DNA from: Escherichia coli
GTDB lineage: Bacteria > Pseudomonadota > Gammaproteobacteria > Enterobacterales > Enterobacteriaceae
Length of the DNA: 64,000 bases
Assembly (NCBI RefSeq): GCF_017348835.2
Contig: NZ_CP071375.1
Reading direction: 5' to 3' (one strand)
Under the pieces are notes generated by a model. The model made no database searches. It was not told the DNA's origin and saw nothing but the letters and a program-made list of their open reading frames with translations. This document shows positions 17,822-25,511 of the stretch, piece by piece; the stretch's first letter is position 1, and each line of letters begins with the position of its first letter. The position numbers and the translations under genes are program-made.

Positions 17822-17894
17822 GTGAGGCACTCGGTTATGAATTACCGCGATGCTACAATGTGGCGCGAAGAATGTTAACCCTCTGGAGCGTTTT

Positions 17895-20324
17895 GTGTCG
17901 TCGTTGCCCGTTGCTGCCGTCTTACCTGAATTACTTACCGCTCTCGATTGTGCGCCGCAGGTATTATTAAGTGCGCCGACCGGGGCCGGGAAATCAACCT
18001 GGCTGCCGCTGCAACTGCTGGCGCATCCCGGCATTAACGGGAAAATTATCCTGTTGGAGCCACGGCGTCTGGCGGCGCGTAACGTCGCGCAACGGCTGGC
18101 GGAGCTGCTTAACGAAAAGCCAGGCGATACCGTTGGCTACCGGATGCGTGCGCAAAACTGCGTCGGGCCGAATACCCGCCTGGAAGTGGTTACCGAAGGC
18201 GTGCTGACGCGGATGATCCAGCGTGACCCGGAGTTGAGCGGTGTTGGATTGGTGATCCTTGATGAATTTCATGAGCGTAGCTTGCAGGCGGATTTGGCGT
18301 TGGCGCTGTTACTCGATGTGCAACAAGGTCTGCGTGATGACCTTAAACTGCTGATTATGTCGGCTACGCTGGACAACGACCGCTTGCAACAAATGCTACC
18401 AGAAGCGCCCGTCGTCATCTCAGAAGGGCGCTCGTTTCCGGTTGAACGCCGTTATTTACCGCTGCCCGCCCATCAGCGTTTTGACGAAGCCGTCGCGGTT
18501 GCGACCGCCGAAATGCTGCGTCAGGAAAGTGGATCATTACTGTTATTTTTACCGGGCGTCGGAGAAATTCAGCGTGTGCAGGAACAACTGGCTTCGCGTA
18601 TCGGCAGTGATGTGTTGCTCTGCCCGCTGTATGGCGCGTTGTCGCTGAACGATCAGCGAAAAGCGATCCTCCCGGCACCGCAAGGGATGCGCAAAGTCGT
18701 GCTGGCGACCAATATTGCTGAAACCAGTTTAACTATCGAAGGTATTCGTCTGGTGGTGGATTGCGCCCAGGAAAGGGTGGCGCGTTTTGATCCGCGAACA
18801 GGGCTTACGCGACTAATTACTCAGCGAATCAGTCAGGCGTCGATGACGCAGCGTGCCGGGCGCGCCGGGCGTCTGGAGCCGGGTATCTGCCTGCATTTAA
18901 TCGCCAAGGAACAAGCAGAACGCGCCGCGGCGCAAAGTGAACCGGAAATATTACAAAGCGATCTTTCCGGTTTGCTGATGGAATTACTGCAATGGGGATG
19001 CAGCGATCCGGCGCAGATGAGCTGGCTGGATCAACCGCCAACGGTGAATCTACTGGCCGCGAAACGCCTGTTACGGATGCTGGGGGCGCTGGACGGTGAA
19101 CGGCTTAGTGCGCAGGGGCAAAAAATGGCAGCGCTGGGTAACGATCCGCGTTTAGCGGCAATGCTGGTTAGCGCAAAGAGCGACGACGAAGCTGCTACCG
19201 CGGCAAAAATTGCCGCCATTCTCGAAGAGCCGCCACGGATGGGCAATAGTGACCTGGGCGTGGTGTTTTCGCGCAATCAGCCAGCCTGGCAGCAACGTAG
19301 TCAGCAACTGTTAAAACGCTTAAACGTATACGGCGGTGAGGCAGACAGTTCGCTTATCGCGCTGCTACTTGCCGGGGCGTTTGCCGATCGCATTGCTCGC
19401 CGCCGTGGGCAAGATGGACGCTATCAACTGGCAAACGGCATGGGAGCGATGCTCGATGCCGACGACGCGCTAAGCCGCCACGAATGGTTGATCGCACCGT
19501 TATTATTGCAGGGCAGCGCCTCGCCGGATGCGCGGATTTTACTGGCGCTACCGGTCGATATTGATGAATTAGTGCGACGCTGTCCGCAGCTGGTGCAGCA
19601 ATCTGACACCGTGGAATGGGATGACGCGCAAGGTACGCTGAAAGCCTGGCGTCGGCTGCAAATCGGTCAGTTGACGGTGAAAGTGCAGCCGTTGGCGAAA
19701 CCGTCAGAAGACGAGTTGCATCAGGCGATGCTTAACGGCATCCGTGATAAAGGTTTAAGCGTGCTCAACTGGACGGCGGAAGCGGAACAGCTACGCTTGC
19801 GTTTGTTATGCGCCGGAAAGTGGTTGCCAGAATATGACTGGCCAGCGGTTGATGATGAAAGTTTGTTGGCGACGCTGGAAACGTGGCTGCTGCCACATAT
19901 GGCCGGTGTACATTCACTACGCGGCCTGAAATCACTCGACATTTATCAGGCACTACGCGGATTACTTGATTGGGGAATGCAGCAACGTCTGGATAGTGAA
20001 TTGCCTGCGCATTACACTGTGCCGACGGGAAGCCGGATCGCCATTCGTTATCATGAAGATAACCCGCCCGCGCTGGCGGTGAGAATGCAGGAGATGTTTG
20101 GTGAGGCCACCAATCCGACGATCGCTCAGGGGCGCGTGCCGCTGGTGCTGGAGTTGCTTTCCCCTGCCCAAAGGCCGCTGCAAATCACGCGTGATTTGGG
20201 GGCCTTCTGGAAAGGGGCGTATCGTGAGGTGCAAAAAGAGATGAAAGGGCGTTATCCCAAACACGTCTGGCCGGACGACCCGGCAAACACGGCACCGACG
20301 CGACGGACGAAAAAGTATTCGTAA
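17895..20324 (+). CDS. hrpB: ATP-dependent RNA helicase HrpB (DEAH-box)
   Basis: Walker A GAGKST and DEFH motifs; probable GTG start at 17895 (VSSLPVAAVLPELL...). The ORF track begins at the upstream ATG 17850. Confidence 0.9.
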   Translation: MSSLPVAAVLPELLTALDCAPQVLLSAPTGAGKSTWLPLQLLAHPGINGKIILLEPRRLAARNVAQRLAELLNEKPGDTVGYRMRAQNCVGPNTRLEVVTEGVLTRMIQRDPELSGVGLVILDEFHERSLQADLALALLLDVQQGLRDDLKLLIMSATLDNDRLQQMLPEAPVVISEGRSFPVERRYLPLPAHQRFDEAVAVATAEMLRQESGSLLLFLPGVGEIQRVQEQLASRIGSDVLLCPLYGALSLNDQRKAILPAPQGMRKVVLATNIAETSLTIEGIRLVVDCAQERVARFDPRTGLTRLITQRISQASMTQRAGRAGRLEPGICLHLIAKEQAERAAAQSEPEILQSDLSGLLMELLQWGCSDPAQMSWLDQPPTVNLLAAKRLLRMLGALDGERLSAQGQKMAALGNDPRLAAMLVSAKSDDEAATAAKIAAILEEPPRMGNSDLGVVFSRNQPAWQQRSQQLLKRLNVYGGEADSSLIALLLAGAFADRIARRRGQDGRYQLANGMGAMLDADDALSRHEWLIAPLLLQGSASPDARILLALPVDIDELVRRCPQLVQQSDTVEWDDAQGTLKAWRRLQIGQLTVKVQPLAKPSEDELHQAMLNGIRDKGLSVLNWTAEAEQLRLRLLCAGKWLPEYDWPAVDDESLLATLETWLLPHMAGVHSLRGLKSLDIYQALRGLLDWGMQQRLDSELPAHYTVPTGSRIAIRYHEDNPPALAVRMQEMFGEATNPTIAQGRVPLVLELLSPAQRPLQITRDLGAFWKGAYREVQKEMKGRYPKHVWPDDPANTAPTRRTKKYS

Positions 20325-20334
20325 GGTTGGTTTT

Positions 20335-20410
20335 CTCCCTCTCCCTGTGGGAGAGGGCCGGGGTGAGGGCATCAGCGCGTACGTTCACCCTCACCCTCAA
20401 GGGAGAGGGG
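20335..20410. repeat. GC-rich palindromic intergenic repeat (boxC-like) forming two or three stem-loops
   Basis: CCCTCTCCC-tgt-GGGAGAGGG (20337-20357); GGGTGAGGG...CCCTCACCC (20361-20396); GGGAGAGGG (20401-20409). The family name is from memory. Confidence 0.5.
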
Positions 20411-20507
20411 ACCGATCGAGCACAAATTTTGAGAGATATCTTCTTCTGTCTTGTAACAGAAGAACAGAAAATCGGGCTTTTGCGCCTGAATATTGCGGAG
20501 AAAAAGC

Positions 20508-23042
20508 ATGGCCGGGAATGACCGCGAGCCAATTGGACGCAAAGGGAAACCGACGCGTCCGGTCAAACAAAAGGTAAGCCGTCGTCGTTACGAAGATGAC
20601 GATGATTACGACGATTATGATGACTATGAGGATGAAGAACCGATGCCGCGCAAAGGTAAGGGCAAAGGCAAAGGGCGTAAGCCTCGTGGCAAACGCGGCT
20701 GGCTATGGCTGCTGTTAAAACTGGCTATCGTTTTTGCCGTGCTGATCGCCATTTACGGCGTTTATCTCGATCAAAAAATTCGTAGCCGTATTGATGGCAA
20801 GGTCTGGCAACTGCCTGCGGCAGTTTATGGTCGAATGGTCAACCTTGAGCCAGACATGACCATCAGCAAGAACGAGATGGTGAAGCTGCTGGAGGCAACA
20901 CAGTATCGTCAGGTGTCGAAAATGACCCGTCCTGGCGAATTTACTGTGCAGGCTAACAGCATTGAGATGATCCGCCGTCCGTTTGATTTTCCGGACAGCA
21001 AAGAAGGGCAGGTGCGTGCGCGTCTGACCTTTGATGGCGATCATCTGGCGACGATCGTCAATATGGAGAACAACCGTCAGTTCGGTTTCTTCCGTCTTGA
21101 TCCGCGTCTGATCACCATGATCTCCTCACCAAACGGTGAGCAGCGTTTGTTTGTGCCGCGCAGTGGTTTCCCGGATTTGCTGGTGGATACTTTGCTGGCG
21201 ACAGAAGACCGTCATTTCTACGAGCATGATGGGATCAGTCTCTACTCAATCGGACGTGCGGTGCTGGCAAACCTGACCGCCGGACGCACGGTGCAGGGAG
21301 CGAGTACGCTGACGCAACAGCTGGTGAAAAACCTGTTCCTCTCCAGCGAGCGCTCTTACTGGCGTAAAGCGAATGAAGCCTACATGGCGCTGATCATGGA
21401 CGCGCGTTACAGCAAAGACCGTATTCTTGAGCTGTATATGAACGAGGTGTATCTCGGTCAGAGTGGCGACAACGAAATCCGTGGCTTCCCGCTGGCGAGC
21501 TTGTATTACTTTGGTCGCCCGGTAGAAGAATTGAGCCTCGATCAGCAGGCGCTGTTAGTCGGTATGGTGAAAGGAGCGTCCATCTACAACCCGTGGCGTA
21601 ACCCGAAACTGGCGCTGGAGCGACGTAATCTGGTACTGCGTCTGCTGCAACAGCAACAGATTATTGATCAAGAACTCTATGACATGTTGAGTGCGCGTTC
21701 GCTGGGTGTTCAGCCGCGCGGTGGGGTGATCTCTCCTCAGCCAGCCTTTATGCAACTGGTGCGTCAGGAGCTTCAGGCTAAATTAGGCGATAAGGTAAAA
21801 GATCTCTCCGGCGTGAAGATCTTCACTACCTTTGACTCGGTGGCCCAGGACGCGGCAGAAAAAGCCGCCGTGGAAGGCATTCCGGCACTGAAGAAACAGC
21901 GTAAGCTGAGCGATCTGGAAACCGCGATTGTGGTCGTCGACCGCTTTAGTGGTGAAGTTCGTGCGATGGTCGGAGGTTCTGAGCCGCAGTTTGCGGGCTA
22001 CAACCGTGCGATGCAGGCGCGTCGTTCGATTGGTTCCCTTGCAAAACCAGCGACTTATCTGACGGCCTTAAGCCAGCCGAAAATCTATCGTCTGAATACG
22101 TGGATTGCGGATGCGCCAATTGCGCTGCGTCAGCCGAATGGCCAGGTCTGGTCACCGCAGAATGATGACCGTCGTTATAGCGAAAGCGGCAGAGTGATGC
22201 TGGTGGATGCGTTGACCCGTTCGATGAACGTGCCGACGGTAAATCTGGGGATGGCGCTGGGGCTGCCTGCGGTTACGGATACCTGGATTAAACTGGGCGT
22301 ACCGAAAGATCAGTTGCATCCGGTTCCGGCAATGCTGCTGGGGGCGTTGAACTTAACGCCAATCGAAGTGGCGCAGGCATTCCAGACCATCGCCAGCGGT
22401 GGTAACCGTGCACCGCTTTCTGCGCTGCGTTCGGTAATCGCGGAAGATGGCAAAGTGCTGTATCAGAGCTTCCCGCAGGCGGAACGCGCTGTTCCGGCGC
22501 AGGCGGCGTATCTGACACTATGGACCATGCAGCAGGTTGTACAACGCGGTACGGGTCGTCAGCTTGGGGCGAAATACCCGAACCTGCATCTGGCAGGGAA
22601 AACAGGGACTACCAACAATAACGTAGATACCTGGTTTGCGGGCATTGACGGCAGTACGGTGACCATCACCTGGGTCGGCCGTGATAACAACCAGCCGACC
22701 AAACTGTATGGTGCCAGCGGGGCAATGTCGATTTATCAGCGTTATCTGGCAAACCAGACGCCAACGCCGCTGAATCTTGTTCCGCCAGAAGATATTGCAG
22801 ATATGGGCGTGGACTACGACGGCAACTTTGTTTGCAGCGGTGGCATGCGTGTCTTGCCGGTCTGGACCAGCGATCCGCAATCGCTGTGCCAGCAGAGTGA
22901 GATGCAGCAGCAGCCGTCAGGCAATCCGTTTGATCAGTCTTCTCAGCCGCAGCAACAGCCGCAACAGCAACCTGCTCAGCAAGAGCAGAAAGACAGCGAC
23001 GGTGTAGCCGGTTGGATCAAGGATATGTTTGGTAGTAATTAA
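20508..23042 (+). CDS. mrcB: Bifunctional penicillin-binding protein 1B (transglycosylase/transpeptidase)
   Basis: 844 aa from [18 protein letters not shown]...; charged N-terminal region, transglycosylase and transpeptidase regions, Q-rich C-terminus. Confidence 0.95.
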
Positions 23043-23261: not shown

Positions 23262-25511
23262 ATGGCGCGTTCCAAAACTGCTCAGCCAAAACACTCACTG
23301 CGTAAAATCGCAGTTGTAGTAGCCACAGCGGTTAGCGGCATGTCTGTTTATGCACAGGCAGCGGTTGAACCGAAAGAAGACACTATCACCGTTACCGCTG
23401 CACCTGCGCCGCAAGAAAGCGCATGGGGGCCTGCTGCAACTATTGCGGCGCGACAGTCAGCTACCGGCACTAAAACCGATACGCCGATTCAAAAAGTGCC
23501 ACAGTCTATTTCTGTTGTGACCGCCGAAGAGATGGCGCTGCATCAGCCGAAGTCGGTAAAAGAAGCGCTTAGCTACACTCCTGGCGTTGCCGTGGGAACT
23601 CGTGGCGCATCCAACACTTACGATTACCTGATCATCCGCGGATTTGCCGCTGACGGCCAAAGCCAGAACAACTATCTGAATGGCCTGAAGATGCAGGGCA
23701 ACTTCTATAACGATGCGGTTATTGACCCATATATGCTGGAGCGCGCTGAAATCATGCGTGGCCCGGTTTCCGTGCTGTATGGGAAAAGCAGCCCAGGTGG
23801 CCTGTTGAACATGGTCAGCAAGCGCCCGACCACTGAACCGTTGAAAGAAGTTCAGTTTAAGGCCGGTACTGACAGCCTGTTCCAGACCGGTTTTGACTTC
23901 AGCGATGCGCTGGATGATGACGGCGTTTACTCTTATCGTCTGACCGGTCTTGCGCGCTCTGCCAATGCCCAGCAAAAGGGCGCGGAAGAGCAGCGTTATG
24001 CCATTGCGCCAGCGTTCACCTGGCGTCCGGACGATAAAACCAATTTCACCTTCCTCTCTTACTTCCAGAACGAGCCGGAAACCGGTTATTACGGCTGGTT
24101 GCCGAAAGAGGGAACCGTTGAGCCGCTGCCGAACGGTAAGCGTCTGCCGACAGACTTTAACGAAGGGGCGAAGAACAACACCTATTCTCGTAATGAGAAG
24201 ATGATTGGCTATAGCTTCGACCACGAATTTAACGACACCTTTACCGTACGTCAGAACCTTCGCTTTGCGCAAAATAAAGTTTCGCAAAAGAGCGTATATG
24301 GCTACGGCATGTGTTCAGATCCTCTCTATTCCTCAAACCCCTCTTCGAGTCCATGTGCCAACGTGCCGCAGTCTCAATGGGGCCATACACTGACTCGTCA
24401 GTACGTTATCGATAATGAGAAGTTAGAAAACTTCTCTGTTGATACTCAGTTGCAAAGCAAATTCGCAACCGGTTCAGTGGATCACACTCTGCTGACTGGC
24501 GTTGACTTTATGCGTATGCGTAATGACATCGACTCCTGGTTCGGATATGCCGGTTCAGTTGCACCATCTGATATCTATAATTTAGACCGTAGTGACTTTG
24601 ATTTTGGCGCTCACCCAAATCCGTCTGGTCCATACCGCGTTCTGCTGAAACAGAAACAAACCGGTCTGTATGTTCAGGATCAGGCGCAGTGGGATAAAGT
24701 GCTGGTTACGCTTGGCGGTCGCTATGACTGGGCCGATCAGTCATCTTTCAACCGTGATTACGGTAATAAATCCGATCGCGATGATAAACAGTTCACCTGG
24801 CGTGGCGGTGTTAACTATCTGTTCGACAACGGCGTAACGCCTTATTTCAGCTACAGTGAATCGTTTGAACCCGCTTCGCAGACCGATGCAAACGGCGATC
24901 TGTTTGCACCTTCGAAAGGCAAACAGTATGAAGTCGGCGTGAAATATGTGCCAGAAGATCGCCCAATTGTGGTGACTGGCGCACTGTATCAGCTTACCAA
25001 AACTAATAACCTGATGGCGGATCCGAACGGTTCACTGTTCTCGGTTGAAGGCGGTGAGATTCGTGCGCGTGGCGTAGAGCTGGAAGCGAAAGCGGCACTA
25101 TCGGCGAGTGTTAACTTAGTTGGTTCTTACACCTACACCGACGCGGAATACACCACTGACACCAACTACAAAGGCAATACGCCGGCACAGGTGCCAAAAC
25201 ACATGGCTTCGCTGTGGGCTGACTATACCTTCTTTGACGGTCCGCTTTCAGGTCTGACGCTGGGCACCGGTGGTCGTTATACTGGCTCCAGCTATGGTGA
25301 TCCGGCTAACTCCTTTAAAGTGGGAAGTTATACGGTCGTGGATGCGTTAGTGCGTTATGATCTGGCGCGAGTCGGCATGGCTGGCTCCAACGTGGCGCTG
25401 CATGTTAACAACCTGTTCGATCGTGAATACGTCGCCAGCTGCTTTAACACTTATGGCTGCTTCTGGGGCGCAGAACGTCAGGTCGTTGCAACCGCAACCT
25501 TCCGTTTCTAA
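23262..25511 (+). CDS. fhuA: Ferrichrome outer-membrane transporter (TonB-dependent receptor)
   Basis: 749-aa ORF; signal peptide, TonB box (DTITVTAAP), C-terminal ...ATATFRF. Confidence 0.95.
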   Translation: MARSKTAQPKHSLRKIAVVVATAVSGMSVYAQAAVEPKEDTITVTAAPAPQESAWGPAATIAARQSATGTKTDTPIQKVPQSISVVTAEEMALHQPKSVKEALSYTPGVAVGTRGASNTYDYLIIRGFAADGQSQNNYLNGLKMQGNFYNDAVIDPYMLERAEIMRGPVSVLYGKSSPGGLLNMVSKRPTTEPLKEVQFKAGTDSLFQTGFDFSDALDDDGVYSYRLTGLARSANAQQKGAEEQRYAIAPAFTWRPDDKTNFTFLSYFQNEPETGYYGWLPKEGTVEPLPNGKRLPTDFNEGAKNNTYSRNEKMIGYSFDHEFNDTFTVRQNLRFAQNKVSQKSVYGYGMCSDPLYSSNPSSSPCANVPQSQWGHTLTRQYVIDNEKLENFSVDTQLQSKFATGSVDHTLLTGVDFMRMRNDIDSWFGYAGSVAPSDIYNLDRSDFDFGAHPNPSGPYRVLLKQKQTGLYVQDQAQWDKVLVTLGGRYDWADQSSFNRDYGNKSDRDDKQFTWRGGVNYLFDNGVTPYFSYSESFEPASQTDANGDLFAPSKGKQYEVGVKYVPEDRPIVVTGALYQLTKTNNLMADPNGSLFSVEGGEIRARGVELEAKAALSASVNLVGSYTYTDAEYTTDTNYKGNTPAQVPKHMASLWADYTFFDGPLSGLTLGTGGRYTGSSYGDPANSFKVGSYTVVDALVRYDLARVGMAGSNVALHVNNLFDREYVASCFNTYGCFWGAERQVVATATFRF

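Follow-up and report, generated by a model that had tools for sequence, protein, structure and literature searches.

Charge blocks, in-frame length alleles and the internal gamma start in the N-terminal tail of Escherichia coli PBP1b

The N-terminus of mrcB contains a real low-complexity, periodic tract, and it belongs to a protein feature that is already known: the gene, both of its start codons and the divisome role of its long N-terminus have been published. To this our analysis of one stretch of E. coli DNA (64,000 nucleotides of contig NZ_CP071375.1, assembly GCF_017348835.2; called the window throughout) adds a census in which the tract proved stable, with in-frame contractions of one to three codons in about 6% of complete E. 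coli genomes and zero expansions found. It also adds that, across Enterobacteriaceae, conservation of the gamma start and of the GAGGA motif preceding it extends to synonymous sites, with GTG in place of ATG in some genera and full loss in a few. We hold it very probable that, as a whole, the tract is explained as part of a disordered PBP1b tail of three charge blocks, with a dual start, an embedded Shine-Dalgarno (SD)-like site, an anionic spacer, a KG-rich anchor and length alleles generated by slippage.

The earlier note on this DNA, made from its letters alone, had assigned the tract to the N-terminus of mrcB, and the assignment was borne out by several comparisons. Positions 20493-20800 are 100% identical to mrcB of E. 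coli O157:H7. The window ORF scored 1733 bits against the NCBIfam equivalog NF007061 (cut-off 1120; residues 1-843) and 1247 bits against TIGR02071, PBP_1b (cut-off 718), and its Pfam domains come in the order PBP1_TM (residues 1-79), UB2H (113-197), Transgly (209-379) and Transpeptidase (473-714). These scores and this domain order confirm the ORF as a member of Penicillin-binding protein 1B (NF007061/TIGR02071). An mrcB annotation was present at the matching segment in 5,424 of 5,426 complete E. coli genomes, and the 5' segment of the gene was unmatched in two. Upstream of mrcB, the ORF at 17850-20324 aligns through its 3' end with annotated hrpB in four E. coli records, while the downstream ORF, at 23262-25511, is presumably FhuA, a TonB-dependent receptor. 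The resulting order, hrpB-mrcB-fhuA, is that of the E. coli chromosome, the fhuA end being assigned by sequence reading only.

Two side observations concern the gene at large. Three of the mrcB matches lay on plasmid-classed records, among them NZ_CP128951.1 (H182), a sequence of 655,459 bp from strain TUM2805; such records are probably chromosome fragments or mislabelled replicons. Furthermore, the 3' end of mrcB (about 22930-23010) holds a second low-complexity region, encoding a Gln/Pro-rich C-terminal tail, for which the tandem repeat finder returned no call.

The layout of the N-terminal tail is given in Table 1. The poly-acidic block and the following KG-rich basic block that had been described within 20580-20720 could indeed be read there, as E29-E44 and R48-R63. 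Of the 16 residues of the former, 13 are acidic and 3 are Tyr, encoded solely by GAT, GAC, GAA, GAG, TAT and TAC, and the latter contains 10 basic residues. From the N-terminus onwards, the three parts of the tail carry net charges of +8, -13 and +10. All constructs used for the solved PBP1b structures begin at residue 58, and the tail has never been resolved.

Table 1. Features of the mrcB N-terminal region, with positions in the window
Feature	Position	Strand	Basis
mrcB (ponB) CDS, PBP1b alpha isoform, 844 codons plus stop	20508-23042	+	ORF list, NF007061, Pfam, annotation
GGAG, Shine-Dalgarno-like motif of the alpha start	20497-20500	+	sequence reading, duplex energy, conservation
Annotated ATG, alpha start	20508-20510	+	
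Codons 1-14, conserved alpha-only peptide implicated in FtsA binding	20508-20549	+	species comparison, PMC13423804
Acidic block E29-E44, imperfect 9-nt GAY-GAY-TAY units	20592-20639	+	sequence, repeat finding, species comparison
Site of the 3-nt deletion, GATGAT (DDDD to DDD)	20601-20606	+	alignment
GATTA...GATTA direct repeat flanking the 9-nt deletion of CFS3292	20604-20617	+	
GAGGA (Glu41-Asp42 codons), SD-like motif at -15 relative to the gamma start	20628-20632	+	duplex energy, conservation
ATG of Met46 (counted from the ATG at 20508), PBP1b gamma start	20643-20645	+	position: sequence; function: literature
Basic juxtamembrane block R48-R63, with KGKGKGKG at 20652-20675	20649-20696	+	sequence
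Site of the 6-nt deletion, GGCAAAGGCAAAGG, perfect 6-nt tandem repeat (one KG fewer)	20661-20674	+	alignment
Hydrophobic transmembrane helix, about W65-Y87 (limits inferred)	20700-20768	+	sequence; inside Pfam PBP1_TM 1-79

In the explanation that we favor, these residues would form a disordered cytoplasmic tail with a basic part (residues 1-27), an acidic part rich in Asp, Glu and Tyr (29-44) and a basic, KG-rich part (48-63) lying beside the membrane helix. The first 14 or so residues of the basic N-terminal peptide would constitute the FtsA-binding motif of the alpha isoform. It has been shown in the literature that the 45 residues found only in alpha carry a divisome-recruiting peptide. 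[quoted passage not shown] That paper makes no mention of the acidic block or of a linker. The acidic block may act as a flexible anionic spacer that prevents the alpha-only peptide from approaching either the anionic surface of the membrane or the basic block beside it, and the KG block might serve both isoforms as a positive-inside anchor.

The alternation of basic, acidic and basic charge would also be compatible with a different role, in which the acidic block folds onto its basic neighbors and works as an electrostatic switch that masks either the FtsA-binding peptide or the KG block. Alpha and gamma would then differ in their interactions with the membrane or with partners beyond FtsA binding. 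The net charges of the three blocks speak for such a switch, but the tail, being disordered, is missing from every solved structure, and we consider this possibility rather doubtful. The spacer remains our preferred role for the acidic block.

The tail is made in two lengths from a single mRNA: alpha is translated from the ATG at 20508 and gamma from the ATG at 20643. The Met following the acidic block, which the earlier note had likened in position to the PBP1b-gamma start, is Met46, the published start of gamma, established by classical genetics as well as by Ribo-RET profiling. The ponB gene is described as having two start codons, with gamma initiating 46 codons downstream of alpha, and the M46L substitution leads to production of alpha only; bands of 94.2 and 88.9 kDa were reported for PBP1b, with M46L as the control (PMC13423804, which cites Kato et al. 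1984, Broome-Smith et al. 1985 and Chalut et al. 2001 for the isoforms). In E. coli, Ribo-RET re-detected mrcB as one of three genes with previously characterised internal starts (10.1101/520783). The shorter isoform, whose absence would have spoken against the reading of Met46, is thus documented (PMC13423804; 10.1101/520783). The window sequence itself has the features that a PBP1b alpha/gamma dual start would be expected to show, namely an in-frame ATG at codon 46, placed between the acidic and basic blocks, with an SD-like motif upstream.

To see how far this arrangement extends, we compared the window with 80 Enterobacteriaceae loci obtained in one scan of species-representative genomes (81 sequences in all). 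No variation was seen at residues 1-11 in 76 of the 80 species loci, whereas the other four, from Klebsiella and Raoultella, read MAGDDREPIG. The GCGGAGA sequence preceding the alpha start, where the predicted anti-SD duplex amounts to -6.6 kcal/mol, is kept in 81/81. The alpha extension measures 40-49 aa, and 45-47 aa in 88% of the sequences. The acidic block varies in sequence while keeping its character (10-19 aa, median 16, with 9-16 acidic residues and 1-3 Tyr), and in all species compared the stretch from the gamma start to the membrane helix holds 8-10 basic residues.

At the gamma position, 68 of the 81 sequences have ATG and five have GTG (Klebsiella pneumoniae, two Leclercia, Silvania and Kosakonia cowanii); wherever Val is encoded there, the codon is GTG. 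The remaining eight sequences have a non-start codon there, specifying Lys, Thr, Ala or Pro; they come from Kluyvera and relatives (L046, L067, L074), from Phytobacter and Kosakonia sp. S29 (L062-L064) and from Superficieibacter (L075, L082). Hence gamma is not universal, and the sequences suggest that this isoform may be dispensable or absent in the start-less genera. One locus of the scan deserves a separate comment: the mrcB of L040 (CACSKA010000010.1), a contig titled 'Chryseobacterium sp. 18061', is enterobacterial and agrees with the one in 'Citrobacter sp. 18056' (L041) at all 99 N-terminal residues extracted, so that the record probably reflects contamination or mislabelling.

The GAGGA motif occurs no more than 21 nt upstream in 68/68 sequences with an internal ATG, at -15 in 64 of them and at -9 or -12 in the others. 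The Glu codon at the motif is GAG in 67/71 cases, compared with 123/312 for the remaining Glu codons of the tract (Fisher p about 5e-19, with related species treated as independent). The anti-SD duplex of GAGGA, at -6.1 kcal/mol, is close to that of the alpha start, and its spacing from the ATG, 10 nt, is on the long side. GAGGA arises easily out of Glu-Asp codons; it is present within 21 nt in three of the eight species devoid of an internal start codon, and absent, together with the start, from two Kluyvera-type loci. From these data we infer that the 3' end of the acidic block doubles as the gamma ribosome-binding site, its final codons GAG GAT (20628-20632) providing the SD-like element.

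One could go further and suppose that the acidic block does nothing at the protein level, its codons being kept solely to supply a ribosome-binding site for gamma and to leave the mRNA around the gamma start unstructured. Conservation does peak at the 3' end of the block, where ATGAGGATGAAGAACCGATG is nearly invariant in DNA, synonymous sites included, and the upstream D/E/Y part differs in sequence between genera. Against this, an SD element needs about 5 nt, yet 9-16 acidic residues accompanied by 1-3 Tyr are found in 81/81 sequences, and the alpha extension is under tight length constraint. A purely translational role is quite unlikely because the acidic block persists in the eight sequences that have no internal start codon. 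We therefore retain a double role, as anionic spacer and as carrier of the SD-like codons, as the likelier account of the block.

Other signals were sought around the two starts. The sole match in an Rfam scan of 20200-20800 at a permissive threshold was to MicF and at chance level (22 bits, gathering cut-off 79, E = 0.99); the tract contains no RNA element. No promoter or terminator turned up when 20250-20750 was scanned for consensus sequences, and for this reason we make no claim of a separate promoter for a gamma transcript.

The earlier note had also called the tract GAT/GAC-rich and microsatellite-like. Its low complexity and periodicity were confirmed: Tandem Repeats Finder reported period-9 arrays at 20588-20623 (4 copies with 77% matches, scoring 44-54), as well as an array of period 6 at 20650-20674 (4.2 copies, 78% matches), and a separate repeat search agreed on the 9-nt register of the acidic tract. 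The repeats are imperfect owing to the alternation of synonymous codons (GAT/GAC, TAT/TAC, AAA/AAG, GGT/GGC/GGG). The longest perfect tandem repeats in 20580-20720 are the 14-nt GGCAAAGGCAAAGG, which amounts to 2.3 copies of GGCAAA, and three CGT copies at 20580-20588, so that 'microsatellite-like' is a loose term for this tract.

The length of the tract was examined in the 5,424 complete E. coli genomes carrying the mrcB segment. Since the allele queries were shorter than 100 nt, the '>=99%' identity band was equivalent to an exact match, and every allele found was then queried in turn. For the acidic tract (69-nt query, 20580-20648), 5,133 genomes matched the reference exactly, 75 had an allele of equal length with the synonymous change P45 CCG>CCT, and 20, as derived by band arithmetic, had other equal-length SNP alleles, making 5,228 genomes of reference length (96.4%). 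Another 195 genomes were 3 nt shorter: 180 through contraction of GATGAT to GAT, which turns DDDD into DDD, and 15, of the LR14 type, with two SNPs in addition. A single genome, strain CFS3292, was 9 nt shorter and had lost one DDY unit (sum, 5,424); E. coli E69 (L012) shows the same deletion at the protein level. A hypothetical +3 nt allele with five Asp gave 0 exact matches among complete E. coli genomes, band arithmetic left no other length class among the 5,409 matched genomes, and no expansion of the acidic tract was present in the 5,424.

The KG tract (69-nt query, 20640-20708) was exact in 4,848 genomes, had SNP alleles in 432 and showed a 6-nt deletion, meaning one KG fewer, in 143; a +3 nt change is conceivable among the 432 SNP-band genomes, so the absence of expansions is not strict for this tract. 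The 143 include all 15 LR14-type genomes, and the four non-LR14 genomes sampled from them (4/4) had an acidic tract of reference length. Overall, a contraction of one to three codons occurs in about 324 of 5,424 genomes (some 6%). This figure assumes that none of the 180 genomes lacking 3 nt is also among the 128 that carry the 6-nt deletion and are not of the LR14 type; a 338-genome identity band fits little overlap between the two sets. About 94% of the genomes have the reference length in both tracts. The in-frame length variation between strains predicted by the earlier note therefore exists, and tract length is not fully conserved across the species; the tract is not hypervariable, and its variation consists of contractions of one to three codons only.

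Every indel found is in frame and located at a short direct repeat, no frameshifting indel occurred in the 5,424 genomes, and all indels spare both the -21 to +6 context of Met46 and the gamma SD-like motif. The long allele is present in E. albertii, E. whittamii and two other Escherichia species, implying that the short alleles are derived. From the repeat context we suggest that GATGAT, GATTA...GATTA and GGCAAAGGCAAA occasionally lose one unit, likely by replication slippage, yielding rare in-frame alleles one to three codons shorter. The sharing of short alleles could mean that the events were few and that the alleles spread by descent or recombination. In the alignment, the 3-nt deletion lies on at least three SNP backgrounds, which reflects either recurrence or recombination.

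These periodic codon repeats, with in-frame length alleles at their junctions in about 6% of genomes and a 3-nt deletion on several backgrounds, might suggest a contingency locus, at which PBP1b expression would be adjusted or switched from strain to strain by frequent slippage, but we reject this idea as extremely unlikely because the repeats are imperfect, neither frameshifts nor expansions were found and 94% of the genomes are uniform. Further points against it are that the deletions fall into three types, that the same tract is found in other Escherichia species, and that each variant allele is identical in 143-180 genomes, which fits inheritance over recurrent switching. Occasional slippage within an otherwise stable tract accounts better for the alleles.

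The length changes might nevertheless have consequences of their own. The short E. coli alleles, together with the changes in acidic length between genera, might tune either how far the FtsA-binding peptide extends or the ratio of alpha to gamma, with gamma being held by selection across Enterobacteriaceae through the SD-like acidic codons, and with GTG as its start in Klebsiella, Leclercia, Silvania and Kosakonia cowanii. If so, fortification of the division site would be altered in particular lineages. We regard such adaptive tuning as distinctly improbable.

Two elements in the hrpB-mrcB intergenic region were noted in passing. At 20333-20417 some 85 nt of GC-rich sequence, TCTCCCTCTCCCTGTGGGAGAGGGCCGGGGTGAGGG...CCCTCACCCTCAAGGGAGAGGGGA, form an imperfect palindrome with a folding energy of -54.4 kcal/mol (z = -4.5) and a single copy in the window. 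It is missing in strains TUM14759 and 98205, 12 nt longer in the K-12-like EV36 and divergent in LR14; it may be related to 'Box C', an intergenic repeat of E. coli, which it resembles. A small hairpin at 20441-20466, TTCTTCTGT-CTTGTA-ACAGAAGAA, immediately precedes the ribosome-binding site of mrcB and is invariant in five aligned E. coli strains save for one loop base; the consensus scan gave no promoter or terminator there.

Beyond bookkeeping, the importance of these results is small, as they concern a known feature and a polymorphism that is real but minor. The census and the conservation data could aid the design of constructs producing only alpha or only gamma, as well as the reading of differences between mrcB alleles. 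They also draw attention to the acidic block as the part of the tail whose role is putative.

Among known systems, the contingency loci of Haemophilus, Neisseria and Campylobacter are characterized by long perfect repeats, frequent on/off switching through frameshifts and high within-strain variability. They share with mrcB short tandem repeats in coding sequence and slippage-type indels, whereas long perfect repeats, frameshift switching and high variability are not seen in mrcB. A more functional parallel is offered by Firmicute class A PBPs that bind GpsB, although we know of no dual start or acidic block in their N-termini. In these proteins, as cited in PMC13423804, an extended cytoplasmic N-terminus likewise serves recruitment to the division site, but the partner is GpsB rather than FtsA and the sequences are unrelated to PBP1b.

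With respect to translation, infB (IF2 alpha/beta) and clpB resemble mrcB in producing two N-terminal proteoforms from one ORF by means of an internal SD-like motif and start, and they were detected by Ribo-RET alongside it. The proteins are unrelated, and of the three mrcB alone has SD-like codons within an acidic low-complexity block and a disordered targeting tail. Much closer is the MrcB long/short pair found by riboproteogenomics in Salmonella Typhimurium (PMC11005335), a homologous dual start with a disordered extension before the membrane anchor that consists of a basic stretch and then an acidic one, and that measures 42 aa compared with 45 aa in E. coli. In S. arizonae (L039) the acidic block, DDDYDDDYEDEE, is shorter, a between-genus change in length akin to that of the E. 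coli alleles. The closest system of all is PBP1b alpha/gamma of E. coli K-12, which has the same gene, the same Met46 start and the same alpha-only extension, with no substantive difference. The window carries an O157:H7-type allele that differs by two SNPs over 308 nt from that of the K-12-like strain EV36, and its tail is identical to the K-12 1-60 peptide given in the preprint methods of PMC13423804.
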